Notes under the pieces: generated by a model
Database searches by the model: none
What the model was told of the DNA's origin: nothing
The model's input: the letters and a program-made list of their open reading frames with translations, nothing else
Assembly (NCBI GenBank): GCA_963665095.1
Contig: OY762069.1
Span: 5,056,001 to 5,120,000 of the forward strand
Reading direction: 5' to 3'
Length of the DNA: 64,000 bases
Origin: an uncultured Desulfobacter sp.
GTDB taxonomy: Bacteria; Desulfobacterota; Desulfobacteria; Desulfobacterales; Desulfobacteraceae
Made by a program: the position numbers and the translations under genes
In this document: piece after piece, positions 1,951 to 59,333 of the stretch
Layout: each line of letters begins with the position of its first letter
Numbering within the stretch: position 1 is the first letter of the stretch

Positions 1951-1951
1951 A

Positions 1952-30580: not shown

Positions 30581-31195
30581 TTGTCTTTAAACCGGGCCAA
30601 TATCAGCAACGCTGGCTTTACCCTGATGGAGCTTTTGATCTCAATCAGTGTAATTATGATGATCATGGCGGTCGCAGCAGGCGCCTTTCGACTGGGATTT
30701 AAAGCCGTGGAAAAAGGGGAAACAGCCATTGATGATCAGCAGCGGCTTATTATTGCGGTAAATTACATATCTGACCAGTTACAGGCTGTCTGTCTGGATA
30801 AAAAAGCTTTGTTCCAAGGCTCAAAAGATAGTCTTGTTTTTCAGTCTAAGGTTGTCAGTTCCTATGAAGACCAGTCTTTAAGACAGGTCGAATTCGGGCT
30901 GGCCAAGAAAGAGGGCGATAAAGAGGGGTGTGGTGACGTTCAGGTTTCAACCAAAAAGGCATTTCCGTTGACAGAGGATGAAAAAGAGGCTGATAAAGAG
31001 ACACTGCTTTCTGGCGTAGAATCGTTTTCGATCGCTTATCTTCAGAGTCCTGACCTGGAAAAAGGCTGGCTGGATACCTGGGAAAATGAGATATATTTCC
31101 CCCTGGCAGTTAAAGTTGAATTTATATTTGAGGCACAGCCGGTGACCATACTGGTGAGAATATTGAGGAGATCAAAAAAGCTTGAAAATGCTTAA
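30581..31195 (+). CDS. gspJ: Minor pseudopilin GspJ
   Basis: G|FTLMELLISI; C-terminal W..TW....PLAVKV motif. Confidence 0.85.
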   Translation: MSLNRANISNAGFTLMELLISISVIMMIMAVAAGAFRLGFKAVEKGETAIDDQQRLIIAVNYISDQLQAVCLDKKALFQGSKDSLVFQSKVVSSYEDQSLRQVEFGLAKKEGDKEGCGDVQVSTKKAFPLTEDEKEADKETLLSGVESFSIAYLQSPDLEKGWLDTWENEIYFPLAVKVEFIFEAQPVTILVRILRRSKKLENA

Positions 31196-34725: not shown

Positions 34726-34758
34726 GCGGCTTCGGCGGCAGGAGGGGTATAGGTAAGC

Positions 34759-35895
34759 GTGTTTTCACAAAACAGCATAGGGGTGGATATTCAGCAAGAG
34801 AGGATATCCATCGGGTGGATTCAAAGTTCGATAAACGGGCTTAGTTTATCCGCTTTTGAAACCTGCGAGCATGACAAAGAGAATAAAGAGGGTACTCTTT
34901 TCCATGTTGATGAACTGATAACCAGATTCATTGATAAGCATTCCATTAAAACATTTGACCTGTATATAGGTATATCCGAAAGAAACTGTTTAATAAAATC
35001 CATTGAAGTTCCTTTATCTGTCCGGGATGAGATTGATTCGCTGTTAGGGTATGAAATTGAAAAATATGTTCCCATACCTGCATCAAAAATTATCTTTGAT
35101 TATCGGATTTTAAAGGAAGATAAGTCCAAAGATACGCTTGACATTCTTTTACAGGCATTTAAGAAAGATGACCTTGCTCCGTTTATCGGTCTGAAGGATT
35201 TTATTCCAGGTGGCATCACCGGCATTATGCTGACGGAATCAGCCATTGAAGAGTATGAGTACTTTCGGACTTCAAAACGTAAATTCCAAATCAGAGGGGT
35301 TGACAGCCAGGCGGATGATTATTTTCAGAAATTAAGGCCCCTGGCACTTGGATTTCAAAAGTTTAATCCAGACAGAGGACGGATAAACTTTTTGCCCCAA
35401 AGGTTCAGAAAGCAGCCCTCCCGTCTTCCCCTTTTAATTTTTATTTCTTTTATAGCCTTGAATATTATTGCATTGTTTGCAATGGGAGCCAGCTATCTGA
35501 TTCAGAACAGTGTTCAGAACAGCCAGCTGGATGGACGGCTTTCCCAATTGAAAGAAAAGCTGGTAAAGGTGGAAACACTTGAAAAGAGGGTGGGAAGCCT
35601 TGAAGCAAGGGAGATGGAAGTCAGGGGTATATTCCAAAACCGCCCATCCATGCTGGAAATATTGACTGAGCTGACCCGAATCATGCCCCCGGATACACAT
35701 CTGAAAGAGTTTGATTTTAAAAAAAATACAATATGGATAAAGGGATACTCCAACCAGGCATCCCGCTTAATTAAAATTTTTGAATCTTCGGGGTTGTTTA
35801 CCAACGCTGAATTTGAAACAAAAATTACCATTGAGAAAGATCATGAGGAAACATTTATAATTAAGATGCGTCTTGAGAAACAAAATGAAAGTTAA
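34759..35895 (+). CDS. gspL: GspL-like protein (PilM-like cytoplasmic domain, TM, PilN-like domain)
   Basis: IGVDI actin-like start, YEIEKYVP, INFLP + TM, LEILTELTRIMP...IKGY. Confidence 0.75.
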   Translation: MFSQNSIGVDIQQERISIGWIQSSINGLSLSAFETCEHDKENKEGTLFHVDELITRFIDKHSIKTFDLYIGISERNCLIKSIEVPLSVRDEIDSLLGYEIEKYVPIPASKIIFDYRILKEDKSKDTLDILLQAFKKDDLAPFIGLKDFIPGGITGIMLTESAIEEYEYFRTSKRKFQIRGVDSQADDYFQKLRPLALGFQKFNPDRGRINFLPQRFRKQPSRLPLLIFISFIALNIIALFAMGASYLIQNSVQNSQLDGRLSQLKEKLVKVETLEKRVGSLEAREMEVRGIFQNRPSMLEILTELTRIMPPDTHLKEFDFKKNTIWIKGYSNQASRLIKIFESSGLFTNAEFETKITIEKDHEETFIIKMRLEKQNES

Positions 35896-36436
35896 TGCCA
35901 TATTGACACGGGAACGGGTAGTCCTGCTGGTGGCAGGCTCCATCGTTCTGCTGGCCGGCCTTCTATACAGGTTTACCCCTGATATCCGATTTTCTTCCCA
36001 TTCCCAAAAACTCAGGCAGGTTGAGAAATACCAGCACCGGGTAGACGGACTGCCTGTACTGGAAGACAGAAATATTTTTTTAACAGGTCAGGTTGAGCGG
36101 GCAAATAATCTTCTTATTTCTGCAGGGTCATTAAAGATTGCAGGGGCAGAAATTCAGAATATGCTGCGGGAAATGGCGGGGCAGGACAATATTTCTTTTA
36201 AAAGCGTCAAGGCATTGAAGGAAGATGTGAAAACGTACGGCTTTGTGTCCGTCATCCCGGTGGGGCTCGCCTTTAAGGCAAACATCCGCCAGTTGAAAGA
36301 TTTTCTTTATAGAATTGAAACATCATCCAAAATGCTTGCTGTCACGGAATTAAGAATCATTAAGCCCGGAAGAGAGGATACTGAAGAGCTGAACGTAATG
36401 ATAACAGTGCAGGGCTATTTTAATGGCAAAAGCTGA
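35885..36436 (+). CDS. gspM: GspM/PilO-like protein
   Basis: LTRERVV + TM, coiled coil, LKDFLYRIE; position after gspL. Confidence 0.75.
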   Translation: MKVNAILTRERVVLLVAGSIVLLAGLLYRFTPDIRFSSHSQKLRQVEKYQHRVDGLPVLEDRNIFLTGQVERANNLLISAGSLKIAGAEIQNMLREMAGQDNISFKSVKALKEDVKTYGFVSVIPVGLAFKANIRQLKDFLYRIETSSKMLAVTELRIIKPGREDTEELNVMITVQGYFNGKS

Positions 36437-36453
36437 GTTTAAGAGGGAGTGAA

Positions 36454-37227
36454 ATGATTTCCAAATTTTGGTGGGTTAATTTTCTGCTTGTGATTACACT
36501 GGTAATTATCGTTGCCGGCATAATCATGATCTGGCAGAACAAAATAGTTTTACCAGGCTCTGATGCCCGGAAAACTGAAAAGCAATGGCCCGAAATATCC
36601 TCTTTTGAACCGCCTGTGAAAGCAAAAGATCAATATGATATGATTGCCGCAAAAAATATGTACAACTCCGCAAGAAAGGAACATATTCTCAAATCAGAAC
36701 CTGAAAAAAGACACCAGGACCCCGTAACACCTGCCAAAAAAGAAGAAAAGCCTAAACAGGCCATTGCTCCGGAGCAGGTGGAAATACTGAATAAGAAAGA
36801 TTTGATCCTTTATGGGGTGATCTTAATGGCGGATTATAGATTTGCCTTTGTCAATGATTTGGACAAAGGGGATAAAGGCGCCCAGATAAAGGTCAAAGAA
36901 ACTGACCGTATCGGCGAGTACGCCATTAAGAAAATTTTTCCGGAGTTTATTATTGTCTCCTATCAGGGCACGTCTTACAGAGTGCCGCTTTTTAAAGAAA
37001 AAGAAGGCAAGAGTACTCAGAAAAAGGTTGCAAAAAACAATGGGCCAGCGCCAAAAGAATTTCCGGAAAAAAAAGGGGCGTCTGATGCTTCTCCCAGGAT
37101 TTTTGACACAAAAGCCAAAAATATGCTGGAGCCGGAGCGGACCGCGTCAAGCAGCAATGATGACGAATACGAGTGGGTAACCCTGAACACACCGTTTGGA
37201 AAAAAGAGGATAAAAAGAAAGAAATGA
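36454..37227 (+). CDS. GspC-like inner-membrane protein
   Basis: N-terminal TM, KNMYNSAR, LILYGV, HR-domain-like VKETDRIG; position before the secretin. Confidence 0.6.
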   Translation: MISKFWWVNFLLVITLVIIVAGIIMIWQNKIVLPGSDARKTEKQWPEISSFEPPVKAKDQYDMIAAKNMYNSARKEHILKSEPEKRHQDPVTPAKKEEKPKQAIAPEQVEILNKKDLILYGVILMADYRFAFVNDLDKGDKGAQIKVKETDRIGEYAIKKIFPEFIIVSYQGTSYRVPLFKEKEGKSTQKKVAKNNGPAPKEFPEKKGASDASPRIFDTKAKNMLEPERTASSSNDDEYEWVTLNTPFGKKRIKRKK

Positions 37228-39536
37228 GCAATAACGGAAAGCGTATCTGTTGGGGAATCTGTCTGGCGGCAATGTTTTTGGTGAGCGGCTGCAGCCTGAT
37301 CAGTGAAAAAAGCGTACCCGAAAGCGAGGCGTATGACTCTGCCTTTCAAACGGAAACAATGACACATAAAGCCGGAACTGATGGGGTGCCTGAGCCTTCA
37401 GTGCCTGAAGAACCTGAGGTCAGCAAGGCGACGGATGAAAAAAAGTTTGTTACAGATAAGCAGATTGAAGCCAGGCTTTATCCCGGGACCCAACCCGGAC
37501 AGGCCGGGCAGAAGACAGTTACGAAGATTCAGAGGCCGGTGCGCCTGAATCAATCCCGGACGGACGGTAACACCAGTCCCGGAAATATTATTCTAAATTT
37601 CGACGAAGCAGACCTTAATGAGGTGATTCGTGCAATTGCGGAGATCCTTAAGCTGAATTATGTTATTGAAACACAGATAGCCGGGAATGTGACCGTCCAT
37701 ACCGCAGGCGGGTTGAATCCGGAGGAGGTTTTTTCCGTATTTTTCCAGCTCCTGGAAGCCAACGGGCTTACAGCGGTTAAAGCTGAAGGGCTTTACCGGA
37801 TTGTCAGGATGGAAGGTGCGTCCAGGCTTCCCATGAATATTCATCTGCGCTCCGATATGTCAGACGTTTCTGCTGGGGAACGGATTATTATTCAGATTAT
37901 CTCCCTGGAACATATTGATGTCCAGGAAATGGTTAAAATCATTGAACCGGTTATGTCAGAGCAGGGAACCATTATCTCCCATGCCAACTCAAACACCTTG
38001 CTGCTTATTGACAAAGGCATCATCGTTTTAAAGGCGTTGAACCTGGTTAAAGTTTTTGATGTCGATACCTTTAAATTGAAAAATCATCGAATCTACCAGG
38101 TCAAATTTACAGACGTGGAAGAGACGGTGTCGCTGATAGAAAGTCTTCGTCAGGCATACGGGGAAACAGACAAAAAACTTTCCCTGATCCCCATTAAAAA
38201 GTTAAATGCCTTTATCGGGGTGAGCCCAGAACCGGCCGCTCTGAAGTGGGTCGCAGACATTCTTGGACAGGTGGATGTCCCAGGATATGACGCTTCCCCG
38301 AAAATCTATGTGTATAAAGTCCAGAACGGGACCTGCGATGAGTTAAGTTCAATTCTGACCAGTGTGTTTTCCAATGCCGCAGCCTCTGCCACCAGCGAGA
38401 AATCATCCAAAAGTGAAAGCGCTAAAATTCAGAACACCAAAAAAGATCAGCCGGATACTGAAACCATCAACCGGTTGCTTAAAGGGGGGAGTTCTAAAAC
38501 CGCAGCGGCGGATGCGTCCGGCTCCGGTACTACAGCAAAGGGGCTGCCTGGGCCCGAAGGCTCAACCGGAAGCGAATCAGCCCCGGCAATGTTGGTAACG
38601 CGCCCGGGTGCTTCAGGAGATACAGCCGGAGCTGATACTTTGAAGGGCACCATTAAAATCACCACAGATACAGTTCGAAACGCTCTGATAGTCGAGGCCT
38701 ATCCATCTGATTATCAGGTTGTGACAAAAATACTTGAGCAGCTAGACGTTCTACCCAGGCAGGTACTGATTGAGGTCACCATTGCCGATATTACATTGAC
38801 GGATACAAACGAACTGGGCATTGACTGGACCAAATATCTTTCATCCCAGGGAATGGGAGGAGATGTTTCCGGCACTATCGGCTCAAGCGGTCTGAATTTC
38901 ACAATCGGCCTGACCGATAAATGGCAGGCAGCCTTATCTGCCATGGCCAGTGAAAACAGAGTCAATATTTTGTCTACGCCGGTAATACTTGCTACGGACA
39001 ACATAGAGGCAAGTATTGATGTCGCCGAGGAAATTCCTGTGGTAAGCACTTCGTATACAACGGTCACAGACGGAAACAATGTCGTGACCAATACCGTACA
39101 ATATCGGGAGACAGGTATTCTGCTGACAGTAACGCCCCATATCAACGACGAGGGCTTTGTGACAATGGAGATCAGCCAGGAGGTGAGTGAAACAGGCGAC
39201 CCGGTGGAAGCCGGCGGAGAAACGTATCAGTCCTTCAGTTCCCGAAATATTGATACCACATTTACAGTCAGCCATCAGCAGACCATTATGATTGGTGGTC
39301 TTATAAGGCAATCCGATACAGGCAACTCCTCCGGGCTGCCCTTTTTATATAAAATTCCGGGATTGAAATGGCTCTTTGGGAGTGATTCGGTTACAACGGC
39401 AAAAACAGAGCTTGCCGTCTTTATCACTCCGTATGTCATCTATTCAATGGAGGATGTTGCCGAAATAACCAGGGAGTTCCGCCAGAGAACCAATAAGGCC
39501 AGAGGAGAGAATAGTTTGAAGGGCACTTCAAACTGA
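37224..39536 (+). CDS. gspD: Secretin GspD with lipoprotein signal
   Basis: Lipobox LVSG|C, LNFDEADL N0 domain, QVLIEV, ILSTP, VTPHIN, IGGLI, IPGLKWLF, ITPYV. ATG 37224 overlaps the previous stop. Confidence 0.93.
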   Translation: MSNNGKRICWGICLAAMFLVSGCSLISEKSVPESEAYDSAFQTETMTHKAGTDGVPEPSVPEEPEVSKATDEKKFVTDKQIEARLYPGTQPGQAGQKTVTKIQRPVRLNQSRTDGNTSPGNIILNFDEADLNEVIRAIAEILKLNYVIETQIAGNVTVHTAGGLNPEEVFSVFFQLLEANGLTAVKAEGLYRIVRMEGASRLPMNIHLRSDMSDVSAGERIIIQIISLEHIDVQEMVKIIEPVMSEQGTIISHANSNTLLLIDKGIIVLKALNLVKVFDVDTFKLKNHRIYQVKFTDVEETVSLIESLRQAYGETDKKLSLIPIKKLNAFIGVSPEPAALKWVADILGQVDVPGYDASPKIYVYKVQNGTCDELSSILTSVFSNAAASATSEKSSKSESAKIQNTKKDQPDTETINRLLKGGSSKTAAADASGSGTTAKGLPGPEGSTGSESAPAMLVTRPGASGDTAGADTLKGTIKITTDTVRNALIVEAYPSDYQVVTKILEQLDVLPRQVLIEVTIADITLTDTNELGIDWTKYLSSQGMGGDVSGTIGSSGLNFTIGLTDKWQAALSAMASENRVNILSTPVILATDNIEASIDVAEEIPVVSTSYTTVTDGNNVVTNTVQYRETGILLTVTPHINDEGFVTMEISQEVSETGDPVEAGGETYQSFSSRNIDTTFTVSHQQTIMIGGLIRQSDTGNSSGLPFLYKIPGLKWLFGSDSVTTAKTELAVFITPYVIYSMEDVAEITREFRQRTNKARGENSLKGTSN

Positions 39537-39632: not shown

Positions 39633-40547
39633 ATGGTTCAAATCATGAAACAGCTGCTTTTGGCGATGATCATTTTCATCAGCCTGGTTCCCGCGATACC
39701 TGCGCTGGAAAGTAAAAAAGCGGCTGTTTTTATTTCAGATACCATTAAGCCTTACTTTGAGGCGGTTAAGGGCCTTGAAGCATACTTTGAAAACAAAGAG
39801 GTGATGCTGAAAATAGTCGAGCTTAAGGACCAGGACCAGGCAGAGTTTGATGACATAGGCAGGGATTTGCTGGAGAAGGGATATGTGTACTGGGCAGCCA
39901 TTGGGCCAAAGGCCACGGAGATAATATATGCCTGCCGGCTTCCCGATGTTTCAGCCAGAGTCTACTCCATGGTGCTTGACCCCGAGGTTATCTTGGTAAC
40001 AAAACCGGTAGATTTCTGTGGCGTGAGTCTTCAAATTCCCCCTGTTGCCCAGGCAGAAGAAATAGCCGGCCTTTTTTCCCCGCCTGCCAGAGTTGGGATT
40101 ATTTTTGATCCGGCATACAATCAGGCCTTTACCGCGCAGGCTGTTAAGGCCTTTGAGGCCAGAGGCCGTATTCTGGAACTGTTACCGGTGGCGTCCAGGC
40201 GCGAGGTTCCCTATGTTCTTGCCCAGGGAGTAAAAAAAATAAATCTGCTGTGGATGATCCCGGATCAGACGGTAATCAGTGAAAGCATTATCCAGTATAT
40301 CATTAAACAGGCCATGCAACAGGGTATCGGGGTTATCGGGTATAATCGGTATTTTTTGAACCAGGGGGCTGTAGCCGCTTTTGTTATTGATTATGAAAAG
40401 GTAGGGGGGCAGACCGGAGAAATCTTGGAGAAAATAATGGATTACGGCAGCTGCAAATCATCAGACCCCTTGTTTGTTTTAAATGTGAATTCCAGGCTGA
40501 TGAAAATTCTGGGATTGGGAAAAAGTGATTCGAATAGGGAACCATGA
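39633..40547 (+). CDS. Periplasmic ABC-type substrate-binding-like protein
   Basis: Signal peptide, AIGPKA, GIIFDP, LWMIPD, G..AA..IDY..VG motifs; no ABC permease nearby. ORF open from 39540. Confidence 0.7.
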   Translation: MVQIMKQLLLAMIIFISLVPAIPALESKKAAVFISDTIKPYFEAVKGLEAYFENKEVMLKIVELKDQDQAEFDDIGRDLLEKGYVYWAAIGPKATEIIYACRLPDVSARVYSMVLDPEVILVTKPVDFCGVSLQIPPVAQAEEIAGLFSPPARVGIIFDPAYNQAFTAQAVKAFEARGRILELLPVASRREVPYVLAQGVKKINLLWMIPDQTVISESIIQYIIKQAMQQGIGVIGYNRYFLNQGAVAAFVIDYEKVGGQTGEILEKIMDYGSCKSSDPLFVLNVNSRLMKILGLGKSDSNREP

Positions 40548-41974
40548 GTATATATCGAAAAAGTGGAATACAGGTCCGGCTGCTTGTGGCAGCATTAGTC
40601 ATGGTCACCAGTGTCGCCTTTGCCCTGCAGCTTGCCGGACTTAAAATAACCAAAAATTTTATGGAAAAACGGTTTGCCGACCGGATTTCTTTTCTGGCCA
40701 AATATCTGGCGCTGAATGCCGAAGTCGGGGTTTTGATTAATGACCGGGACGGTCTTAGAAGTCTGGCTTTGAATCTTCTCGGGGAAGAAGACGTGGGACG
40801 GGTTACGATCATGGATAATCAGAACACAAAGCTGGTTGATATCGAGAGGGAAGTGCTTTCTCCGGTGTCCTATGTGGAAACCCCTGTTGTGTTTAAAAAA
40901 GCGGGAGGGGAAAATGTCCTTTTCGCAGTTCCGAAACATAATCCATTTGTCAGAACGGACGGACAGGAAAGCACACAAACCATAGGAAAGGTTAAAATTG
41001 TATACTCCACCCATGGCATCAACTCTCTCATGAGTGAGATCATGGTGAAGTTTTTACTTTTGTCCGGACTTCTGGCAATGGTCGGGGGCGGGGTTTTCTT
41101 TTTTATATCACGTCCCATGGTGAGAGAGGTGCGAACACTTGCTGACGGGGCTGAAAAAGTGGGTCAGGGAGATCTTGAATATCGGGCGGCGCTGGGCTCA
41201 TTTCCTGAAACACGGAAGCTGTCGGTTGCGTTTAACAAGATGCTGGATTCCCTGAAACAGAACCGAATCAAGCTTGATGAGGCAAATACCAGAATGGTTC
41301 GGCATCAGGCCCTGGCAGAAGTGGGGAAATTTTCTTTAATGGTGGCCCATGAGTTTAAAAATCCCCTTGGAATTATTAAAAGCTCCTTTGATATGTTAAA
41401 AAAGGATTTTAATGTACCAAAAGAGAATGCCTTTGCTTGGTATATCGAAGATGAGATTCGCCATGTCAATACGCTTGTGGAGGATTTTCTTGCATTTTCA
41501 AGACCCAGCAAAGGGGTTTTTAAGAAAACCGATTTAAACGGAATGGTCAGTGATGTCTGCGCCAGGTTCAGTGTGATGTATAACGACAGTTCTAAGGTGG
41601 TTTTTAGCTACAGCGACATTCCCGGCATTCCGTTTTATGCTGAGGCAGATGAGGCGTTGTTGACAAGAAGTATTACCAATCTATTGAAGAATGCCTTTGA
41701 ATCCGTGGAAGATCAGGGGTCGGTCACGGTCTGCGTTGAGATTATTCCCGAAAACCTGTGGCAGATTAATGTCATGGATTCAGGCCAGGGCATCTCCCCT
41801 GATGATATGGAGCGGATATTTGATCCGTTTTATACAACAAAGACCAAAGGGTCAGGTTTGGGACTGGCTTTCGTGAAACAGGCTGTATTGGCGCACGGGG
41901 GATCGGTTACGGCCGTGAACAGGCGTGAAGGCGGCTCGGTTTTCAGCCTGACGGTTCCCGGGATGAAAGAGTAA
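40544..41974 (+). CDS. Sensor histidine kinase (2 TM, HAMP, HisKA, HATPase)
   Basis: VAHEFKNPL H-box, NLLKNA, DSGQG, FYTTK, GSGLGL. Confidence 0.95.
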   Translation: MSIYRKSGIQVRLLVAALVMVTSVAFALQLAGLKITKNFMEKRFADRISFLAKYLALNAEVGVLINDRDGLRSLALNLLGEEDVGRVTIMDNQNTKLVDIEREVLSPVSYVETPVVFKKAGGENVLFAVPKHNPFVRTDGQESTQTIGKVKIVYSTHGINSLMSEIMVKFLLLSGLLAMVGGGVFFFISRPMVREVRTLADGAEKVGQGDLEYRAALGSFPETRKLSVAFNKMLDSLKQNRIKLDEANTRMVRHQALAEVGKFSLMVAHEFKNPLGIIKSSFDMLKKDFNVPKENAFAWYIEDEIRHVNTLVEDFLAFSRPSKGVFKKTDLNGMVSDVCARFSVMYNDSSKVVFSYSDIPGIPFYAEADEALLTRSITNLLKNAFESVEDQGSVTVCVEIIPENLWQINVMDSGQGISPDDMERIFDPFYTTKTKGSGLGLAFVKQAVLAHGGSVTAVNRREGGSVFSLTVPGMKE

Positions 41975-41986
41975 AAAAGGATAACC

Positions 41987-43333
41987 ATGGATAAAGCAAC
42001 CATACTGATTGCAGACGATGAAGAGCGAATGCGCCATCTTCTCGCGTTGATGCTTGAAAGAAACGGATACCAGGTTGATCAGGCCAAAGACGGGGCAGAT
42101 GCCCTGGAAAGGCTGAAGGAAAATCAGTACGACCTGTTGGTCAGTGATATAAAAATGCCCAACATGGACGGAATGACGCTGCTCAAACGGTTGAGGGAGG
42201 AGGATATTCTGCTGCCGGTGGTTTTTATCACAGCCTTTGCCACAGTGGACGCTTCGGTGGAAGCCATGAAGGCCGGAGCGTCTGATTATATTACCAAGCC
42301 GTTTGAAGAGGAACGAATTATTATGACGGTGGGCCGGTGCCTTGACCTGGGCAGGGTTCTGGCCGAAAACAGGCGGCTTAAAGAGGAAATAAGAAGCATT
42401 TCCTACAAACGAAGTATTATATATGAATCAAGGCAGATGAATGATGTGATGGGGCTTGGTTCACGGGTGGCGCCGACTTCCTCCGCAGTAATGATCACCG
42501 GAGAATCTGGAACTGGAAAAGAGCTGCTGGCCAGATATATCCATGAGAACAGTGAGCGCAAGGACAGCCGGTTTGTTCCATTGAACTGTGCCGCCATCAC
42601 CCCCACCCTGGTTGAATCTGAACTTTTCGGGTATGAAAAAGGCGCGTTTACAGGGGCGGAGTCCCGGAAAAAAGGCAAGTTCGAATATGCCACAAAGGGA
42701 ACCTTGTTTCTGGACGAAATCGGAGATATGCCGTGGGAGGCCCAGGCCAAACTGCTGAGGGCGCTTCAGGAACAGCGGTTTCAACGGGTTGGCGGTAACA
42801 GGGAAATCCCTGTTGATGTAAGGATTATCTGCGCCACAAACCAGAATTTAAAAAAGATGGCCGAGCAGGGGGATTTCAGGAGTGATCTGCTTTACAGGAT
42901 CAATGTATTTCCCATTGAAATGCCGGCGCTTCGGACCCGGCAGGAGGATATTGTTCCCCTTGCAAAACATTTTCTCTCCCTTCAGACCCGGAAAGGGGAT
43001 ATGGAATTGACTCAGGGTGCCTGCGATATGCTGTTGCAGTACCGCTGGCCTGGAAATGTCAGAGAGTTGCAGAATGTAATTGAACGGGCGGTTATTCTGG
43101 CAGGTGATGCCAAAATTATTACATCTGACATACTGTGTTTTCTTGAAGACAGTACGCCCATGCCTGAGGATGAAACCGGGTTTGTCCTGCCGGAAAGCGG
43201 TGTCTCCCTGGAAAGCATCCAGCTGGACCTTGCCAGGCAGGCCCTGGAAAAAACCGGGCATAACCAGACCGCAGCCGCTAAACTTTTAGGGATGACCCGG
43301 GCAAAATTCAGGGTATTGATAAAAAAAACATGA
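41987..43333 (+). CDS. Sigma54-dependent response regulator (NtrC family)
   Basis: Receiver (ADDE, SDIKMP), GESGTGKE, GAFTGA, FLDEIG, WPGNVREL, Fis-type HTH. Confidence 0.95.
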   Translation: MDKATILIADDEERMRHLLALMLERNGYQVDQAKDGADALERLKENQYDLLVSDIKMPNMDGMTLLKRLREEDILLPVVFITAFATVDASVEAMKAGASDYITKPFEEERIIMTVGRCLDLGRVLAENRRLKEEIRSISYKRSIIYESRQMNDVMGLGSRVAPTSSAVMITGESGTGKELLARYIHENSERKDSRFVPLNCAAITPTLVESELFGYEKGAFTGAESRKKGKFEYATKGTLFLDEIGDMPWEAQAKLLRALQEQRFQRVGGNREIPVDVRIICATNQNLKKMAEQGDFRSDLLYRINVFPIEMPALRTRQEDIVPLAKHFLSLQTRKGDMELTQGACDMLLQYRWPGNVRELQNVIERAVILAGDAKIITSDILCFLEDSTPMPEDETGFVLPESGVSLESIQLDLARQALEKTGHNQTAAAKLLGMTRAKFRVLIKKT

Positions 43334-43410: not shown

Positions 43411-45519
43411 ATGAAGAATAAAAGGAAACAAACAATCTGGAAGATGATGAAGCAGTTCCGGCTGGTAAAGACCGGCGTGCAGTCGTTTTATTTTGTCGCC
43501 TTTTTATTGTTTGGCTGGCTGGGCTGTTGCACTGTTTTTCAGCCGGCAAATATCTGCCGGGCCGAGGATAATACAGACCTCATGTTTGTGGGCGAGGCGC
43601 TTGACGTTATTACCACTGCCTCAGGGCGGGAGGAAGGCGCGTGGAAAGCGCCTGTTATCGCAGATGTGATTTCCCTTGAGCTGATGGAACAAAGCTGTGC
43701 ATCCGATCTGGCCGATCTGCTGGAATCGGAACCTGGTTTTTTTATATCTCCCAGCGAAGCGGGATACAGCGTTGAGTTAAGGGGGATTCCTGACTCTGTT
43801 TTGTTTTTATACGATTCTGTGCCCACCGGTGCCGGACTGAATAAAACATTTAACAGTATTAATCCCTACCTCTCTTTGGAATCCATTAAACGAATTGAGA
43901 TCGTTAAAGGTCCGGGATCTGTTTTGTGGGGACCGGACGCCTTTGCAGGGATTGTGAATATTGTACCGCTGACCGGAAAAGATTTTCAGGGTGTTGAAAC
44001 AGGACTTCGCTGGGGATCCTCCCAAATAGAAGAAAGCGCCTATGTCCGCTGGGGCGGGAAAAAGGGAGACAGAAACTGGTTTTTGGCTTTGAACGGCGGG
44101 CGGGGACAAAAGGACGACAGGGATGAGTACAATGTTGTCCGTTTCTGGGGAACAGACAACGCTTCGGATCCTGTAAGTCCTGAATCGCGATATGGAAACG
44201 GTACGGTAGATAATCCGGAATTTCTGGAACTGGTTGGAAACTCAGGCGTTGGGGATTTGTTTAAGCTCAGCACCAGTTTTTCCTTTTATAATATGCCCTA
44301 TACCCGGTCCACCGAAGACGATGCCTGGGTATGGAAGGAAGAAAATACGGCATTTTCTGGGTTTATAAAGCTTGAAGGCAGCAAAAAATATAATTTCAGT
44401 TCAGGGTTCAGGTGGACGGCGTATATGTCCTGGTTCAACACCTCTACGGAAATTGTGGACCTGGACCTTGACAGCCGGGACCGGGTTCTGTTTGGTGAAC
44501 TGGTGCATGAAAAAACAGTATGGCGCGGCAATGGCCTTCTGACAACCGGGCTGTCCATCCGGCATGAGGATGTGGAAGATCTGCCGGTGTGGAACCACTA
44601 TTATCCGGATTATTTCTCAAGTGACAACACCTCCTTCCTTCCCTCCTGGGATGCATATGATTATTCAATTTTAACCACATCGGTTTTCAGCCAGTACCAG
44701 CATACCATAAAGCAGATGGATTTCTGGGCCGGAGTCAGAGGGGATGACCATGAAGCCTCCGGCAGCAATATCTCATATAATATCGGGGGGGCATGGAATC
44801 CATCTGATCAGTGGGGTATTAAGACCTTGTACGGGAATGCATACCGGACACCTGTGGCAAAACAGCTCCAGGAGGGAAAAACAGATATGGAAAATATAGA
44901 AACCCTGTCCGTTCAGACCGAGTGGAAGCCGGATAAAAAATTTTCCTTGGGTATCACCGGGTTTGTCAGTGATATGAGTGACGGGTATGTGGAAGACCCC
45001 GCCTTAGGGCTTTCAGAACCTGTAAACAGAAGATTTTATGGTACAGAGTTGAAAATCCGGTATTCACCGCTCCTGGATCTTGTGCTTAAATCCGGTCTCT
45101 CCTGGGTTAAAAGCACTGGTGAAGATATCCATTTCAGATACCATGATTACTCTTACTGGCAGGACGGGGAAATTGTTGACCATTACAAGGATATTTATGA
45201 ACCCTATGATGGCGGACCTGAGCTGCAGTTCAATACAGAAGTATCATATCAGATAAATGAAGATATTAGCATCAGGGCGGAGTGCCGGTATATTTCGGAA
45301 CGAACGGCCAGATATCTGGTGGAGGAGACTATTCACACCTATGAGGATGTCTGGCTGCTGGATGTCGGTTTAAAAATAGCCAATTTGCCGGTATGTCACC
45401 TGGATGCAGACATATCTTTTAAAAATGTTTTTAATACACAGTATTGGCAGCCAGGGATCTATGGACCTGTAAAGGGAGACGGATTCAGTGTGGAAATCGG
45501 AATCGGAAAACGGTTCTAG
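43411..45519 (+). CDS. TonB-dependent receptor-like outer-membrane protein
   Basis: Plug motifs (ITTASG, RIEIVKGPGSVLWGPDAFAGIVNI), amphipathic beta strands, KNVFN, C-terminal Phe. True start may be downstream. Confidence 0.85.
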   Translation: MKNKRKQTIWKMMKQFRLVKTGVQSFYFVAFLLFGWLGCCTVFQPANICRAEDNTDLMFVGEALDVITTASGREEGAWKAPVIADVISLELMEQSCASDLADLLESEPGFFISPSEAGYSVELRGIPDSVLFLYDSVPTGAGLNKTFNSINPYLSLESIKRIEIVKGPGSVLWGPDAFAGIVNIVPLTGKDFQGVETGLRWGSSQIEESAYVRWGGKKGDRNWFLALNGGRGQKDDRDEYNVVRFWGTDNASDPVSPESRYGNGTVDNPEFLELVGNSGVGDLFKLSTSFSFYNMPYTRSTEDDAWVWKEENTAFSGFIKLEGSKKYNFSSGFRWTAYMSWFNTSTEIVDLDLDSRDRVLFGELVHEKTVWRGNGLLTTGLSIRHEDVEDLPVWNHYYPDYFSSDNTSFLPSWDAYDYSILTTSVFSQYQHTIKQMDFWAGVRGDDHEASGSNISYNIGGAWNPSDQWGIKTLYGNAYRTPVAKQLQEGKTDMENIETLSVQTEWKPDKKFSLGITGFVSDMSDGYVEDPALGLSEPVNRRFYGTELKIRYSPLLDLVLKSGLSWVKSTGEDIHFRYHDYSYWQDGEIVDHYKDIYEPYDGGPELQFNTEVSYQINEDISIRAECRYISERTARYLVEETIHTYEDVWLLDVGLKIANLPVCHLDADISFKNVFNTQYWQPGIYGPVKGDGFSVEIGIGKRF

Positions 45520-45698: not shown

Positions 45699-45711
45699 TT
45701 GAGTGTTTCCT

Positions 45712-46812
45712 ATGATTAAACTGTGTATAAAAATAGCTTTGATTGCGCTGGCAGGTATCTTTTCGGTTTGGCCCGGTGTCTGTCCTGCGGTTGAGCTCAG
45801 CGTGGTTGAATATAAACTGCTTGAGCAGATCAATCAGAACCGGGAAACGGAATTGATTGTCAACTCAAAGCTGACCCAGGTTGCTCAAAGCCGTGCTGAA
45901 CAGTTTTACGAGGATGAGTTCGGTTCAGGGTCACAGGAAAATCAGGCGGTGACCATACAGGATGCCGGATACTTCGCTATAAGAACAGGTTTAAGTAACG
46001 GGCTTATTTTGTTTTCCAATTACATCTCCAGCGATAACGCAGCCGGTCTGCTGTATGAATCCCTGGTCAGAGAAGCAGAGTATGACGGGGAAGACTCCAA
46101 CCTTTTTTCCGAAAAAATTCTGGAAGCCGGGCTCTGTGTGTATGAAACCCAGGTGGCGATAAGCAGTATGCGGTTTAATGTATATATCGGCTCCCTGGTC
46201 TGGGCACAGCCGGTCATTGCGGAGAACTCTGATGCAGCCATCATTAAGGCCCAGGTGGAAAATCTCATTGACCAGCAGCGCAGTCTGCTGTCCCAAGGCC
46301 CCTTGTTCCAAACCGACATGTCAGAAGAGAGTGACGTGATCCAGGTGGCCTGTATCCTGAATGGTGAGGATGCCAATGCTTATTCAGAACAGATTTTCAG
46401 TCTTTTACAGGAAAATGAAAGGTTGTTTGAATCCAGTATTAATGCCATGGATCTCGCTGTGGATATCTGTCTGGTCCAGGCGGATACGGGGTATAAGCTG
46501 GAGGGGCGCGCAACCATCCGGTTGGCGGAAACAGATATAACAGAAAATTGGATCAAGGGCCTGGTCTATTCGGATACCAATTCAAATGGCATATACGACC
46601 CGGGAGAAGGGGTTGCAAATATCCCGATGGTGGTATATGATGCCGGCATTCATTCAAAAACCGGCATGGCAGGTAAAATCTTAGAGGCTGTAAGCACTGC
46701 CGGAAAAGGGTATCAGCTGGTTCTATTTCCCAGGGGATCAGGAACAATGATATATGAGGCAAATCAATCCAATATCGAATTTAATATCATTAATATTAAT
46801 AATATGTATTAA
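45712..46812 (+). CDS. Secreted protein with degenerate CAP/SCP-like domain and C-terminal SdrD-B-like Ca-binding motif
   Basis: Signal peptide; LLEQINQNR..L..VAQSRA..AGY; KGLVYSDTNSNGIYDPGEG. Confidence 0.55.
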   Translation: MIKLCIKIALIALAGIFSVWPGVCPAVELSVVEYKLLEQINQNRETELIVNSKLTQVAQSRAEQFYEDEFGSGSQENQAVTIQDAGYFAIRTGLSNGLILFSNYISSDNAAGLLYESLVREAEYDGEDSNLFSEKILEAGLCVYETQVAISSMRFNVYIGSLVWAQPVIAENSDAAIIKAQVENLIDQQRSLLSQGPLFQTDMSEESDVIQVACILNGEDANAYSEQIFSLLQENERLFESSINAMDLAVDICLVQADTGYKLEGRATIRLAETDITENWIKGLVYSDTNSNGIYDPGEGVANIPMVVYDAGIHSKTGMAGKILEAVSTAGKGYQLVLFPRGSGTMIYEANQSNIEFNIININNMY

Positions 46813-46933: not shown

Positions 46934-48754
46934 ATGAGAAGAATTTTTGTAGTGGCGGTAGCTCTGATGAGTGTAGCTCTTTTTGCTAATTCATCTTATG
47001 CTATCAACAAGGTTCAGATGACCTTGACCTCACCTACTATCTACAAATCTGGTTGCGAGAAAGCCGGTTCTACAACCTATGAATTTGACGCCGGTTCAGT
47101 TATCAATGCAGGCGACTGGTGGTACATGGATCTGCCTGAAAACATTACCCTTTGCAAAAATTATGATTTCGTAATTGCTGCAGCAGGTACTGCTAGCCCT
47201 GATGTTACCATCAATGCTGCATTATTGCCTTATCAGAATGTTGTTTTTAATAACGCAGCCGGAATTACCGCTGGCGGACTTAGCTCTCTTGTTCCGACTA
47301 CTGGTCCTGTCACAATCGGTGGGGATACAGCCGCTGCGGCTACGATTGTCAATAATTTTGCTTTTCTGGTAAAGGGAACTATCGGACAGAGAAGAATCAC
47401 CATTTACGCGTTGACAGACACTGCTGTGGCCGATACTCCTTCGATTACAGTTACCGCGGATACAACCCTGCAGATTAAATTGTTCGACGGCCAGGCATGG
47501 AGCTTGACTGACGGTACTCTGGCTGCTACTGACAACCGTATTCTGACCGATGCTGACGGTGACGGCACATACGGTGAAATCGGAGCCCTTGTGGCACTGG
47601 CAGGCAACGAAGTAATCGGAAATGTAAACACCGCTGATGTTACCCTAGGTGCCCCCTATGTTGAGAACACTCTGTGTATCAACGCAGAAGCAATGTCAGG
47701 ACAGTATGTATATACTTCCTATGCTTCCAAGCTTGACAAGTTCACCTTCTCCGGTGACTCCCAGATTGCTCATACTGCAACTGCCGGTTCCATTGCCCTT
47801 GCTTCCTGCAAAGACAGTGACCAGTTTGACATTGAAGTGGATTCTGCTCAGGGCGCAACCCAGTGCTGGTTTGACTATGAAGCAACCACTTCAGGTACCA
47901 ATGGTAACTACTGCAATACCGGATGGCCTTCAGTTGAAGAGCAGAGATTCCTGATCGAAGCAACTTCTGGGGCTTTCGGGGACATCGGCGACAAATACAC
48001 CATCACTGCTGAGATTACTTCTCCCAGCAACGGTGTTTACTTTGGCGGCGTTCCTGCTGTTACCCTGATCAAGAGCACACAAGACGAATGTAATGTGGCT
48101 GGTTCTGCTCCCACTACTGCTCCTGTATGGGTAGGAACTGATGATTCCGGTGATACCGTCACAGCCTATAACGGTGGTGATTGCTCAGTGGATGATAACG
48201 AAATGGCAGTGAAGCTGACCCAGACCGGTACTTCCGCTATTACTCTTGACGGTTATGATACCATTTATGTCAACTTTGCAGACTTTGTTTTCATGAATAC
48301 TGCTGTTGACGTTGGGGAAGAAGTAACTGTAGAGCTCACTCTGAACAGATATCCCTGCGGCGAAATTTTCTCTGATTCCAGAACAATCGGTACCTTTGTT
48401 GCCGAGTGTGGCACTGTTGCCGGTACCATGACTATCCGGTTCCCGTGGCTGCCTGGTTCAGATGCTGCCGGATGGTGGGGTGGTTTCGTTATCGCCAACT
48501 TCGGCGCTTCCGAAGGTACTGCTACTCTGACTTACAGGGATTCTGCAGGTGCAACTGCTACCTACACAACAGATGCGATTGCTGCCGGCAGCCAGTGGGT
48601 TTCCACTGCCATCACTGAGGCTGATCTGACCGACGTTGACGGTTATGATGCAGCCCTGAACTTCAGTGTTCAAGCTGTATGCGGTTTTACTGCAAGAGGC
48701 TTTGCCTTTACCGGAAACGGTGAAGAGGGTACTGGCTACGTTGTTAGCGATTAA
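46934..48754 (+). CDS. Putative surface-layer / major secreted envelope protein
   Basis: Sec signal (SSYA|), acidic and T/A/G/V-rich beta-strand sequence with several Cys. Codon usage is strongly biased (GCT/ACT/GGT/GTT/AAC/TTC); strong RBS; double hairpin downstream. Confidence 0.65.
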   Translation: MRRIFVVAVALMSVALFANSSYAINKVQMTLTSPTIYKSGCEKAGSTTYEFDAGSVINAGDWWYMDLPENITLCKNYDFVIAAAGTASPDVTINAALLPYQNVVFNNAAGITAGGLSSLVPTTGPVTIGGDTAAAATIVNNFAFLVKGTIGQRRITIYALTDTAVADTPSITVTADTTLQIKLFDGQAWSLTDGTLAATDNRILTDADGDGTYGEIGALVALAGNEVIGNVNTADVTLGAPYVENTLCINAEAMSGQYVYTSYASKLDKFTFSGDSQIAHTATAGSIALASCKDSDQFDIEVDSAQGATQCWFDYEATTSGTNGNYCNTGWPSVEEQRFLIEATSGAFGDIGDKYTITAEITSPSNGVYFGGVPAVTLIKSTQDECNVAGSAPTTAPVWVGTDDSGDTVTAYNGGDCSVDDNEMAVKLTQTGTSAITLDGYDTIYVNFADFVFMNTAVDVGEEVTVELTLNRYPCGEIFSDSRTIGTFVAECGTVAGTMTIRFPWLPGSDAAGWWGGFVIANFGASEGTATLTYRDSAGATATYTTDAIAAGSQWVSTAITEADLTDVDGYDAALNFSVQAVCGFTARGFAFTGNGEEGTGYVVSD

Positions 48755-48842: not shown

Positions 48843-48872
48843 AAAGGGGAAGGGGTAACCTTCCCCTTTTTT
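48843..48872 (+). terminator. Intrinsic terminator
   Basis: AAAGGGGAAGG-GGTAA-CCTTCCCCTTTTTT. Confidence 0.85.
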
Positions 48873-48901: not shown

Positions 48902-51328
48902 ATGAACAGGGTTCTACTATTTCTTTTGTTTATTCTGGCCTTATTCTCTTCTACGAATGTTATTGCTGATGAAGCTGCCCAATCGGATCATATCCCATGG
49001 TCGGGGTGGTGGTGGCCGGATAATGTCGGTTCCCTGGCAACTGGAGACGATTACAGAGGCAGTCCGGCACCTTTGGAAAAATATGATCTGGTTACATCCG
49101 ATGAGCAGCAAGGGCCTGCGACAACCTATTATTTAACTTATAGATATGATGCCGACGCTCAAACCTGGGAAGGACTTTGTGACGCCTGGTCTGCTGCTTC
49201 TATTCTTGAGGATATTGATTTTGCGGTGTCAACAATCAGTAACCTGTATTTTTATATAGGAGACAAGAAAGGGCTGGTTACCCTGGCCTATGAAAGGAGC
49301 TTTAATACAGGGGTGGCTCAAACATCCACTTCTCCCCTGGTTTTCCATGAATGGCTCCAAAACTATATACGGGACGCTGGTGTTCCGTTTTATGCAGACC
49401 TGGACTGCAGTGCCCAATCCTGGAATTATCCTATTTTTGAATATAGCATGGATATTACAGACATGGGTGATGAGACCTATGTATCCTGTACAATCTGGTA
49501 CGCGGACGACGGTGTGGATCCGGACTATTCCGGCACCAAGGTGCGAACCAGGGCCTATGAGTATACGTTGTATAACGACGGAACCGGATATTCCGGCGGA
49601 GAATGGGGACTGGACAATACTTCAAACCATCCTGAAATACTAAACCGTCCGGCTGAGGCGGTCGCGGCCAATCCATACCTTGATTATGACACTATAAAAA
49701 CCATTGCTGAATCCGTTGATGACGCTATTGAATCAGATCTTGCAGTGGCGTTGAATCCTGGTATGTACAATTTGATTCTTATGAACAAGGACCAGTACAT
49801 TGTTGATGCGGAAGACTCGGATACGGCATATATAGAGATAGAACGGCTTGACGATACTGACGAGTATATCAACATAGAGATCACTGATGCTGCCGGAGAT
49901 TCGATTTATACCGGCACCATTACCGAGACCAAATCAATCCCCCTTGATTACGGAACCCCTCCCTATGACGTTGTCTTAAGTAAAGACAGCTATGATAATC
50001 CCGGCCTTTACAGAATTCAATATGATGTGAGAAAAAACTTTGAGTTTGTGCGCCCTAAAACCCAGAAAGGATATGGGTGGGGGGGGTATGCACTTGTTAA
50101 TACCTCAGAAGATACAATTTCTGATATTATTATCAGTGGATATACCGATGACGGAACGCCGCTGGACTCATTTATTGGCCCGTTTTCGCTGAATGCCGGA
50201 GAAAAGAAAGTTGTTCTTACTTCGGATTTCTCTTATCGTAATCAAATCGAAAAAGAGAATTTTTACGGCATTAAAATACAAAGTCCTGAAAATTTATCAA
50301 TTGTTAATCTTTCAGGATCCCTTGACAGCCATATGGCCCTTGTATCATCCCAGGATCTGGGTACAAAATTAATAATTCCGGCATATCCTCAGTCTACCGA
50401 TTTTTCTGAGATCAGGAACTGGGGGGTTTATAACCCATGGGTCCGGTCAGCCCAGACAACCATGACATTGTACTCTGAAAGCGGGGACGAAGAGGAAAGT
50501 GTGGATGTAGAGATAAGCCCCATAGGGATTAACCATTACGGGAATTCCGATGGGCCCTTTGAATCTTCGACAGGCAATGGGTGGGTATCCATTGAATCCA
50601 ATAAAGATATTTCGTGTTATCAGGAATGGCTATCAAGCCGAAGCGACTTTAATGACGTTCTTCCAGGACTCATACCTGGGCTTTTATTTTATCTTCCTAA
50701 CATTTCCGTCAGTGGTGGTTGGGATACAACCATTACTTTAATTAATACCTCGGAAAATGAAAACCAGGTTTCCTTTCAAATTCTTAACCCTGAAATCAGT
50801 GAAACTCTTCTTGTCCGGATAATGCAGCCATTCGAAAAAATAGAGATAGATGCCGCTGACCTGTTTTCCGGATACTCCAATCAACAGGTGACGGCCTCTT
50901 CACTTAGGATCACATCTGACAGCCAGATAGCCGGATACTACACCTACACTGCTTCCGGCTCATCGGAATTTATGGCCATTCCTCTGTCAGCTGAAACCGA
51001 CATAAAGCGTCAGCTGACTCTTCCCCATGTTGCTTCGGGAGACGGGTGGTGGACCGGCGTCAATCTGTTTAATCCTGGCTCAAATAACTCCGTACTCAAC
51101 CTTTTGCCTTATGACAGCACTGGCCTCCTTTTGGAAGCAAAAAAAGTCATGATCACTCTTGAAAAGAATCAAAAGCTCACTACATTGCTTTCAGATATTT
51201 TTGACCTTGAGTCCGGATCTGCGATAGATTATGTAAGGATAGAAGTTGAGGAAGGAAGCGCTGTGTTCGGAACCTATGGATATGGATATACCGGCATGAA
51301 GATGCTGGCTGCATCACGGTTAAATTAA
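48902..51328 (+). CDS. Secreted GP42/transglutaminase-elicitor-like protein with four C-terminal beta repeats
   Basis: Signal peptide; PWSGWWWP, PLEKYD, WEGLCDAWSAASI, GDKKGL, WNYPI motifs; C-terminal ~100-aa repeats containing P..GW...N. Confidence 0.65.
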   Translation: MNRVLLFLLFILALFSSTNVIADEAAQSDHIPWSGWWWPDNVGSLATGDDYRGSPAPLEKYDLVTSDEQQGPATTYYLTYRYDADAQTWEGLCDAWSAASILEDIDFAVSTISNLYFYIGDKKGLVTLAYERSFNTGVAQTSTSPLVFHEWLQNYIRDAGVPFYADLDCSAQSWNYPIFEYSMDITDMGDETYVSCTIWYADDGVDPDYSGTKVRTRAYEYTLYNDGTGYSGGEWGLDNTSNHPEILNRPAEAVAANPYLDYDTIKTIAESVDDAIESDLAVALNPGMYNLILMNKDQYIVDAEDSDTAYIEIERLDDTDEYINIEITDAAGDSIYTGTITETKSIPLDYGTPPYDVVLSKDSYDNPGLYRIQYDVRKNFEFVRPKTQKGYGWGGYALVNTSEDTISDIIISGYTDDGTPLDSFIGPFSLNAGEKKVVLTSDFSYRNQIEKENFYGIKIQSPENLSIVNLSGSLDSHMALVSSQDLGTKLIIPAYPQSTDFSEIRNWGVYNPWVRSAQTTMTLYSESGDEEESVDVEISPIGINHYGNSDGPFESSTGNGWVSIESNKDISCYQEWLSSRSDFNDVLPGLIPGLLFYLPNISVSGGWDTTITLINTSENENQVSFQILNPEISETLLVRIMQPFEKIEIDAADLFSGYSNQQVTASSLRITSDSQIAGYYTYTASGSSEFMAIPLSAETDIKRQLTLPHVASGDGWWTGVNLFNPGSNNSVLNLLPYDSTGLLLEAKKVMITLEKNQKLTTLLSDIFDLESGSAIDYVRIEVEEGSAVFGTYGYGYTGMKMLAASRLN

Positions 51329-51421
51329 TATCAGGATGAAGCTATATTCCGCAGGGCTTCGGATCATCTTTGCGTGTGGTTGAGCGCTTCACTCAGCCTA
51401 AACGTTAATAAAAGGGAAAAA

Positions 51422-52474
51422 TTGAAATTGTTTAAGATTGTCAGATGTATTTTTTTAGCTTGTTTACTTGTTATGCTGGCTGCAACTTTGCCGGCAAGTG
51501 CAAAAGAGCTTGTTGTTGCCTTCACCAGTGATACGGCAGGGTTGGTTCTGCCCTGTGGTTGAGCCGTTAAAAAAGGAGGACTGGCCCGTCGGGCCGGTGC
51601 AATTGAAGATCTCAGGAAAAAGAATCCCAATTTTATTCTGGTGGATGCCGGAGATATGTTTTTCAACACCAGGACGATTCCGGAACAAAGAGCCAGTCTG
51701 ATTCTTCGCAGTATGGATTACATGAAGTATGATGCGGTTACTTTGGGTGAAGGGGAGTTCGGGTTGGACTTTAAGTTTTTAGTCAAGGCGCTTTCCCGCA
51801 CCTCTATGTCTTATGTGTCTTCAAATCTTCAGATATTATCTGATGATAATAAAACAATTTTTACACCATACATTTTAAAAAAGATAGATGGCATAACGAT
51901 AGGTATAACGGCGGCTACACCCGGCGTAATGATGAATGATTCTGTCCGACAGAATCGCAGGATCACGATTAATAAGCCTATTCCTTCCCTGAAGAAGATT
52001 GTTGAAGAGCTGAAGGGTAAGAGTGATTTCATCATTGTGCTTTCACATTTCGGCAAAAGTGGCACTCAGAATCTATTACGGTATAATGATTTTTCTGATG
52101 TTTCTCTGGTTGTTGCCGGGCATGGGAGGGGCATTACCAATAAAGCAGAGAAACAGGGCGATACCATCATTGTCCGGAACAGCATGGGTGGAGAGTATCT
52201 TGGTGTAATTAGATTTAACCTTGAAAATACAGGAAAAGTAAAAGATTTCAAGATTGAAAATATTCCACTTAGCGACAATCTGCCGGAAGATAAATTCATT
52301 GCTGGAGAGATTGAAAAATTTACAGCTTTGGATGTAAAGGTCAAGCAAAAAAAAGAGAAACAGGATCGCTTGGTAAAAAAAGAGAAGGAGCGTGCAGAGG
52401 AGGCAAAAAAAGCAGATGAAATTCTACAGCTTTCTCCGGAAGCATTCATCAAAATGATGGATCAAAATAAATAA
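51422..52474 (+). CDS. UshA-like (5'-nucleotidase fold) periplasmic selenoprotein, CxU motif
   Basis: ORFs 51374-51562 and 51641-52474 are in one frame joined by TGA 51560-62: signal peptide...FTSDTAGLVLPCG-U-AVKKGGLARRA...LVDAGD. TTG start behind AAAGGGA. Confidence 0.85.
51580..51598 (+). promoter_or_regulatory. Bacterial SECIS element
   Basis: ACTGGCCC-GTC-GGGCCGGT 8-bp stem; apical loop begins with G, 25 nt after the UGA. Confidence 0.75.
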
Positions 52475-52480
52475 ATTGCC

Positions 52481-52517
52481 AGGACCAACAAATCCTTTAG
52501 AAGGGTTTGTTGGTCCT
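52481..52517. terminator. Hairpin between convergent genes (probable bidirectional terminator)
   Basis: AGGACCAACAAATCCTT-TAG-AAGGGTTTGTTGGTCCT, 17-bp stem with one wobble. Confidence 0.7.
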
Positions 52518-52955
52518 CATTTTTGATTTGTTCAGAACCCAGTTTCCTGATTCGAAAAGCCAGAGTTCACTAACGGTCGGATTGAGGGGATACCCCATTT
52601 TGATAATCTTGAATCTCAAGGACACTTCATATTCATTCTTCGTTCCTGGGATCGGTCTGATACTCAAAATGTCATAGTCTGAAACATTTTTCATTTCACC
52701 CCGGGAAACAAATTTTTCTTGTTTGACTGAGTTGCGAAAATCTTTGTTGGTCATATTGTAAACTGTTGCCCAGTCTCTTTGGCTTCTGGCTTTCCATAGC
52801 TTATATACAGCTTTCTTCAGTGTTGCTGTGCCGTTATCATCGCCAGGTGTAACAGACGAATTCTTTGAAATTACCGTACAGGAGGAAAGTAAAAAAATCA
52901 AAATTACAGAAAGACCTGTAATACCTACTGTGTAATAGCTGGCAGACTTATTCAT
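52497..52955 (-). CDS. Small lipoprotein (NTF2-like fold suspected)
   Basis: Lipobox LLSS|C; LWKAR..DW..VY; C-terminal W.FE.GNW. Confidence 0.7.
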   Translation of the reverse strand: MNKSASYYTVGITGLSVILIFLLSSCTVISKNSSVTPGDDNGTATLKKAVYKLWKARSQRDWATVYNMTNKDFRNSVKQEKFVSRGEMKNVSDYDILSIRPIPGTKNEYEVSLRFKIIKMGYPLNPTVSELWLFESGNWVLNKSKMRTNKPF

Positions 52956-55866: not shown

Positions 55867-55987
55867 ATTTTGGCTAAAGAGATTAGATTGCTATTCATAA
55901 GTTTTGTTTGACTTATTGCTTTCGATCTCTGTTCAGGACTGAAGCGGATAAACCATTGGGTCGCTCGTGGGAGCTATAGGGGAAAAT

Positions 55988-56602: not shown

Positions 56603-56628
56603 GAAGAGCGGTAAGGCTTTTCTCTGGA

Positions 56629-57966: not shown

Positions 57967-57980
57967 GAAGGGTTGTAAAT

Positions 57981-59285: not shown

Positions 59286-59333
59286 GGCAAGCGCCTTCAG
59301 ACAAAACCTTTAATTCAAGGATAATGAATCATA

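Follow-up and report, generated by a model that had tools for sequence, protein, structure and literature searches.

The gene at positions 51422..52474 (+) of the window, by which we mean the whole 64,000-nucleotide stretch of an uncultured Desulfobacter sp. analysed here, raises the question whether the stop codon within its frame is read as selenocysteine and, if so, what an exported selenoprotein does beside genes for a putative surface coat. The frame holds a single internal stop, TGA 51560..51562 (+), between PCG and AVKKGGLARRA. Read as selenocysteine (Sec47), it gives a continuous product of 350 aa containing Cys45-Gly46-Sec47, as an earlier note on this DNA had claimed. A Shine-Dalgarno-like AAGGGA precedes the TTG start (51412..51417, +; from the sequence). 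Residues 1-27, ending in ASA ahead of K (51422..51502, +), form a probable signal peptide; this assignment, also made in the note, fits on inspection, and the structure model has an N-terminal helix at residues 2-20. At the other end of this short, haem-free form, a long helix (residues 291-335) and a short one (339-348) make up an LxLSPEEF-type tail (52292..52465, +), which replaces the C-domain of nucleotidases or a tetrahaem domain.

Public gene calls begin past the UGA, so that the signal peptide and the active residue are missing; for the present gene the call is the shortened form P0002 of 272 aa. These calls favour the reading that the TGA is a true stop, caused by a pseudogene lesion or a sequencing error, and that only the downstream ORF of 272-277 aa is made. 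Model comparison shows, however, that this ORF lacks both the signal peptide and the first strand. The genome contains selA, selB, selC (tRNA-Sec) and selD, all over their cut-offs, with one TGA in selD itself. Our homologue sample comprised 301 genomes of the class, 20 of which matched the protein at E ≤ 1e-20. Excluding the present gene, 28 related places were found: 18 have a single TGA at the selenocysteine column, eight have Cys, and the remaining two are long frames without the motif. The Sec/Cys column is invariant in 26/26 alignment rows. A search for related loci gave only distant matches of 22-29% and one short fragment. The TGA and the hairpin that follows it are unchanged in contigs of all four sequencing runs (four studies), two of which differ at 13 and 9 other sites and two of which may be the source DNA. 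As selA is present in 291/301 class genomes, it does not explain the patchy distribution of the selenoprotein.

The hairpin is formed by an 8-bp stem (51580-87 with 51591-98; 51580..51598, +) and a GUC triloop (51588-90), whose G lies 25 nt past the TGA, the spacing and the G-first loop being as the earlier note had described them. The bSECIS model (PMC13188914) specifies a loop of 3-9 nt with G first or second, a stem of 4-16 bp, a spacing of 16-37 nt and an MFE of ≤ -7.5; the GUC loop, 8 bp, 25 nt and -16.5 kcal/mol found here all lie within these ranges. On its own the hairpin is not unusually stable, a point in favour of a true stop: its z is -0.25 against shuffles, with 73/200 shuffles folding as well, and genome codon usage alone would produce the hairpin core in ~17% of GGLARRA codings. 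The support it provides is for these reasons comparative. Stability was rejected as hairpin evidence, the mean local fold energy being equal in Sec (-14.75 kcal/mol) and Cys homologues (-14.78 kcal/mol); the two types of region can be told apart only by their sequence pattern and by covariation.

Across the GGLARR codons, TGA-type genes form a hairpin of one of two kinds, either GCCC-GNN-GGGC, as in the present gene, or a stem with a GGUCUN loop. One or the other pattern occurs in 20/20 TGA-type and 1/8 Cys-type genes, a difference for which a Fisher P is not a fair test, since both patterns were written after seeing the Sec sequences; the count covers 28 rows from 30 loci and missed L037, L057 and one of two L080 copies. 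The two registers follow lineage (L022, L028-L030, L032, L034, L039, L043, L064, L079), and L024 has both. In the GCCC-GNN-GGGC hairpin, 94% of cells are paired, two pairs have changed on both sides, and the covariation score was reached in 0/500 shuffles; the corresponding values for the GGUCUN-loop hairpin are 96%, two pairs and 3/500, these controls being inflated by the relatedness of the sequences. Together with the TGA or Cys at the identical column and the agreement of all runs, the covarying hairpins make a true stop exceedingly improbable. The earlier note had named beforehand three findings that would speak against selenocysteine, namely a genome without selenocysteine machinery, homologues lacking Cys or Sec at this position, and a TGA owed to sequencing error or a pseudogene lesion. 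None of these was found, and the internal TGA is very probably the selenocysteine codon of an exported protein.

The gene is a short variant of a known family lacking an assigned function. The family has been catalogued since 2008 as 'COG0737, UshA-like, CxU' in PMC2398784, which counts it with the major selenoprotein families in marine metagenomes and singles it out as having no assignable redox motif. It is also listed in tables of PMC9312934 and PMC13188914. Given this long record, the recoding itself is ordinary. The earlier note's assignment to the UshA-like family holds for the broad definition, with C45-G-U47 on a UshA/5'-nucleotidase domain, but does not extend to the closest curated model. 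The best NCBIfam match, NF041198 UshA_like_PCGU (E 1.2e-49), reaches 169.3 bits against a cut-off of 275 and spans profile positions 4-335 of 519. The C-terminal multihaem region (profile 400-519), which we took as defining from the model itself, is absent, and the protein (P0001) has no CxxCH. The uncovered end of the profile matches separate exported tetrahaem c-type cytochromes, L006 (G000:C1:2737400-2738600) and L008, which are possible electron partners of the short selenoprotein. Within our set, 18 relatives are haem-fused, and the LxLSPEEF-type tail is common to most of the short ones.

The structure model (pLDDT 96.4) finds its best matches in the N-domain of CD73/UshA. The nucleotidase ligand set is incomplete: DTAG replaces DxH and GEGE replaces GNHE, as the earlier note had pointed out, and GHGR likewise stands for GHxH. 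In the 26 short cassette-linked copies, the His of DxH and that of GNHE are both replaced; D75 is present in 25, D78 in nine, H209 in ten and H234 in 11, while the D78, H209 and H234 positions are conserved in 5/5 true nucleotidases. In the short cassette-linked copies the dimetal site has been dismantled. CxU is a correct label for the present protein but not for the conserved unit, in which only the Sec/Cys position is kept: the 26 Sec-type cassette loci comprise 11 with CxU, six with CxxU and nine without Cys in the four preceding residues. What is conserved is one selenol, placed on the loop ahead of the GGLARR helix.

The selenoprotein gene closes a series of genes on the forward strand that suggests a surface coat and its export. 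GspE/F-like genes (382-3181) and type II secretion-like genes ending in a secretin (30581..39536, +) were recognised by eye from translations, the latter with synteny in L046. They are followed by a histidine kinase and a sigma-54 response regulator, conserved upstream of the cassette (40544..43333, +), a TonB-plug outer-membrane barrel, conserved within it (43411..45519, +), an exported protein whose orthologues have CAP and SdrD-B-like domains (45703..46812, +), and a 606-aa all-beta exported protein with 11 Cys, a candidate S-layer or coat subunit (46934..48754, +). A terminator-like hairpin lies past the coat gene (48843..48869, +), with a second hairpin just before it. Next comes an 808-aa exported protein with a GP42-like transglutaminase/papain fold and an invariant Cys93 (48902..51328, +). 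The selenoprotein gene converges on a gene for a 152-aa lipoprotein (Cys26) of an unnamed, probably NTF2-like family, a constant cassette member (52497..52955, -), and a 17-bp terminator-like hairpin lies between the two (52481..52517, +). No sigma-54 promoter pattern was found upstream of the cassette genes, and sigma-70 and terminator counts are at chance level. Most relatives have an extra 220-aa unnamed gene between coat and enzyme, which is absent at the present locus. Blocks of glycosyltransferase, asparagine-synthetase-like, carbamoyltransferase-like, methyltransferase and Wzm/Wzt genes, at 4208-30163 (gene types recognised by eye) and 55048-64000, are interleaved with the T2SS-like genes and may have a role in coat glycosylation or anchoring.

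The earlier note had linked the selenoprotein to a secretion and surface-layer locus, and this link recurs well beyond the present genome. The transglutaminase-like gene is found in 31/301 class genomes (one partial) and in 12/380 other genomes of the phylum sample; its cassette is patchy, occurring in 2/10 genomes of the genus. We examined all 43 loci with a transglutaminase-like N-terminal domain. An UshA-like gene lies within 2.5 kb in 27/43 (18/30 class loci, the present one included, and 9/13 phylum loci), spread over 15 families and with varying gene order and orientation, counts in which related genomes are not independent. TGA is present in 26 of the 27 linked genes. The cassette consists of genes for the cysteine-rich S-layer-like protein, the GP42-like transglutaminase and the NTF2-like lipoprotein, and most of its members belong to no named family. 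Six cassette loci, from the two distant families f114 and f66, have the haem-fused form instead, and four more short copies lie beside the lipoprotein gene with no full transglutaminase-like gene nearby. About half of the 16 loci without a linked UshA-like gene are cut by contig ends nearby. The cassette without an adjacent UshA-like gene is seen at eight f7 loci and at one well-flanked locus (L076). The f7 coat proteins are equally rich in Cys (15-22 in seven loci), and a search of five f7 genomes turned up no short form at other places. In four f7 genomes whose cassette lacks the selenoprotein (G020:C66, G053:C23, G191:C6, G208:C1), selA lies on the same contig as the transglutaminase-like gene, 35-50 kb away. 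As f7 keeps the cassette without the gene, the selenoprotein is not required for the coat everywhere, and its role in the coat is accessory.

A midpoint-rooted tree of 69 rows, weak in its deep branches, shows at least four separate origins of non-cassette Cys paralogues, each next to Sec copies, which suggests that the cassette role retains selenocysteine; G250, with two Cys copies inside the cassette, is an exception. The Cys-type paralogues outside the cassette adjoin thioredoxin, CcdA/DsbD, MauE, rhodanese and DGC genes, and one tree group of them has thioredoxin, CcdA, MauE, rhodanese, DGC and ArsP neighbours. A Cys-type 'GCC' short branch (L052, L057, L058, L060) in ArsR/ArsP/DGC/thioredoxin/CcdA clusters forms a second conserved context. 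UshA-like selenoproteins occur widely outside the cassette too, in varied surroundings: one query (A5) matched 131/381 phylum genomes, some ordinary nucleotidases being among the matches.

The two large cassette proteins are candidates for an S-layer subunit and a transglutaminase, respectively. The 606-aa protein has a weak, all-beta model (pLDDT 60, nine sequences), which as a whole has low-TM Ig-like Foldseek matches, so that only domain-level matches were used. Its last domain matches TM1070 (Z 11.0, rmsd 3.2, 103 residues) and weakly resembles the C-terminal repeats of the 808-aa protein (probability 42%). No Pfam family matches it at E ≤ 0.001, and thus not Slr4 PF19526 either; in its nearest Atlas clusters (0.95), Slr4 occurs in 12-20% of members, a recognition below the reliability mark. 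The gene is followed by a terminator of its own and shows the strongest codon bias among eight genes compared, and 41 of its 65 homologues lie on contigs shorter than 2.9 kb, roughly the length of one gene; these features are hints of possible high expression. Two named homologues come from Desulfobacter and Desulforegula. Nearly all complete orthologues have 10-26 Cys, one having six, and this Cys content does not track the presence of the selenoprotein. The 808-aa protein matches GP42 transglutaminase PF16683 with 38.5 bits (cut-off 25) and contains a W-x-G-x-C motif whose Cys93 is invariant in 12/12.

We consider a periplasmic selenol thiol-redox catalyst that matures coat proteins to be the best reading, which we hold tentatively and at a little less than an even chance. 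In this model, SelB would read the hairpin and insert selenocysteine at UGA 47, a step with strong comparative support, and the signal peptide would direct the protein to the periplasm. The 5'-nucleotidase N-domain fold, kept after loss of the dimetal site, may then serve as a scaffold that presents the selenol on the loop leading into the GGLARR helix. The selenol would attack disulfides or oxidised thiols of its clients through a mixed Se-S intermediate, which Cys45 could resolve in the present protein; a resolving Cys would be optional in the family. Gene linkage points to two clients, either or both of which may apply: the 11-Cys coat subunit, whose disulfides would have to form or shuffle before type II export, and the catalytic Cys93 of the transglutaminase-like enzyme. 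More speculatively, electrons may be exchanged with the fused tetrahaem domain in long forms, and with a separate partner in the present short one. Coat orthologues rich in Cys, the redox genes around Cys-type paralogues outside the cassette and the lack of a DsbB or VKOR match favour this reading; the f7 cassettes that do without the gene and the many UshA-like genes in other surroundings count against it.

DsbB and VKOR gave no match in the one-contig, 97%-complete genome, but two genes of CcdA/DsbD type and one of the DSBA family are present. The latter (G000:C1:1494706-1495281, -), with one in-frame TGA, is probably another selenoprotein gene. A tRNA-Pyl lies outside the window, within G000:C1:893000-902500, where its neighbours resemble, by eye, pylB/C/D/S/Sn, methyltransferase and corrinoid protein genes; the genome thus probably encodes both selenocysteine and pyrrolysine. 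A wider proposal, which is possible but doubtful as a whole, is that anaerobic sulfate reducers without DsbB or VKOR build a disulfide-rich coat cross-linked by an enzyme, and that a dedicated selenoenzyme on a dead nucleotidase scaffold either forms or isomerises the disulfides, with c-type haems taking up the electrons, or activates the enzyme that makes the cross-links.

Two other functions have to be weighed against coat maturation. The protein could be a genuine selenoprotein with a general envelope role, such as the reduction of periplasmic peroxide, sulfane sulfur or metalloids, which merely accompanies the cassette and does not act on its products. The cassettes of f7 that do without the gene are in keeping with such a role, as is the company of other UshA-like genes, which lie by ArsR/ArsP, rhodanese, class V aminotransferase, TauE, FdhD/E and aldehyde oxidoreductase genes. 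Adjacency in 27/43 loci, in several orders and orientations and with two architectures, speaks against a passive companion, as does the repeated origin of Cys paralogues outside the cassette, G250 excepted. We therefore regard a general role as the less probable account, albeit one with some real weight.

The second alternative is a remodelled metalloenzyme or metal chaperone, in which one metal would be held by D37, D75, D78, H209 and H234, and Sec47, together with Cys45, would either complete the site or attack a phosphoester or thioester in surface glycans or proteins. The present protein indeed keeps five canonical ligand positions and scores 34.4 bits with Pfam Metallophos (cut-off 21.5), and glycosyltransferase and Wzm/Wzt genes flank the cassette. 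Yet D75 is the only one of these residues conserved among the short cassette-linked orthologues (25/26), and the C-terminal substrate domain of the nucleotidases is absent. Where the earlier note had left a redox and a metal role side by side, the lack of conservation of the remaining ligands makes the metal role less likely than the redox one, and we judge the metalloenzyme proposal improbable. Coat maturation by a selenol remains our preferred reading.

What appears to be new is the conserved surface-coat cassette context of an UshA-like selenoprotein. Among the papers covered by a literature search, none assigned a function to UshA-like selenoproteins, none dealt with a selenoprotein and an S-layer in Desulfobacterota, and none combined UshA, selenocysteine and transglutaminase; UshA is absent from the main texts of PMC13326102 and PMC5029168. 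Should the recoding alone hold, the result amounts to an annotation fix, as it corrects gene models that start past the UGA. Should the wider proposal hold as well, envelope proteins would be folded by a route based on selenium, and the UshA-like selenoproteins would have their first function. The conserved cassette names candidate clients, the 11-Cys coat subunit and the Cys-dependent enzyme, and thereby makes this function testable.

The cassette proteins share features with several known systems and depart from each of them. Slr4 is an S-layer family encoded downstream of T2SS genes (PMC7821379, PMC11094555), and like the 606-aa protein it is large, exported and beta-rich; the main text of the Slr4 paper mentions no transglutaminase or cysteine. 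GP42 transglutaminase (PF16683, PDB 3TW5) shares its Pfam family and the W-x-G-x-C motif with the 808-aa protein, which is a transglutaminase by sequence prediction. A His directly after the catalytic Cys marks GP42 (PMC10318531), whereas the 808-aa protein has Asp there, a minority of orthologues have His, and His149 is invariant instead; the 808-aa protein has about 500 residues of repeats in addition.

The selenoprotein resembles UshA and CD73, as well as SoxB, in its N-terminal metallophosphoesterase fold (Foldseek E 1e-23, TM about 0.67 by query length). In alignment, its Cys/Sec loop falls on the loop of CD73 that contains Cys and precedes GGVAR; in CD73 this loop forms a disulfide. In contrast to UshA and CD73, four catalytic or metal residues are replaced (the H39, N110, H111 and H236 positions) and the C-terminal substrate-binding domain PF02872 is missing. 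UshA-like family 2 (NF049981) likewise consists of short nucleotidase-fold selenoproteins, but has CxxU where the present protein has CxU, and the match to it reaches 71.3 bits against a cut-off of 140. The closest likeness is to the NF041198 family, which has the same nucleotidase N-domain fold, PCGU before GGLARR, an exported product and an in-frame UGA. Unlike members of that family, the selenoprotein described here ends in a helical LxLSPEEF tail, and its gene belongs to a coat cassette.
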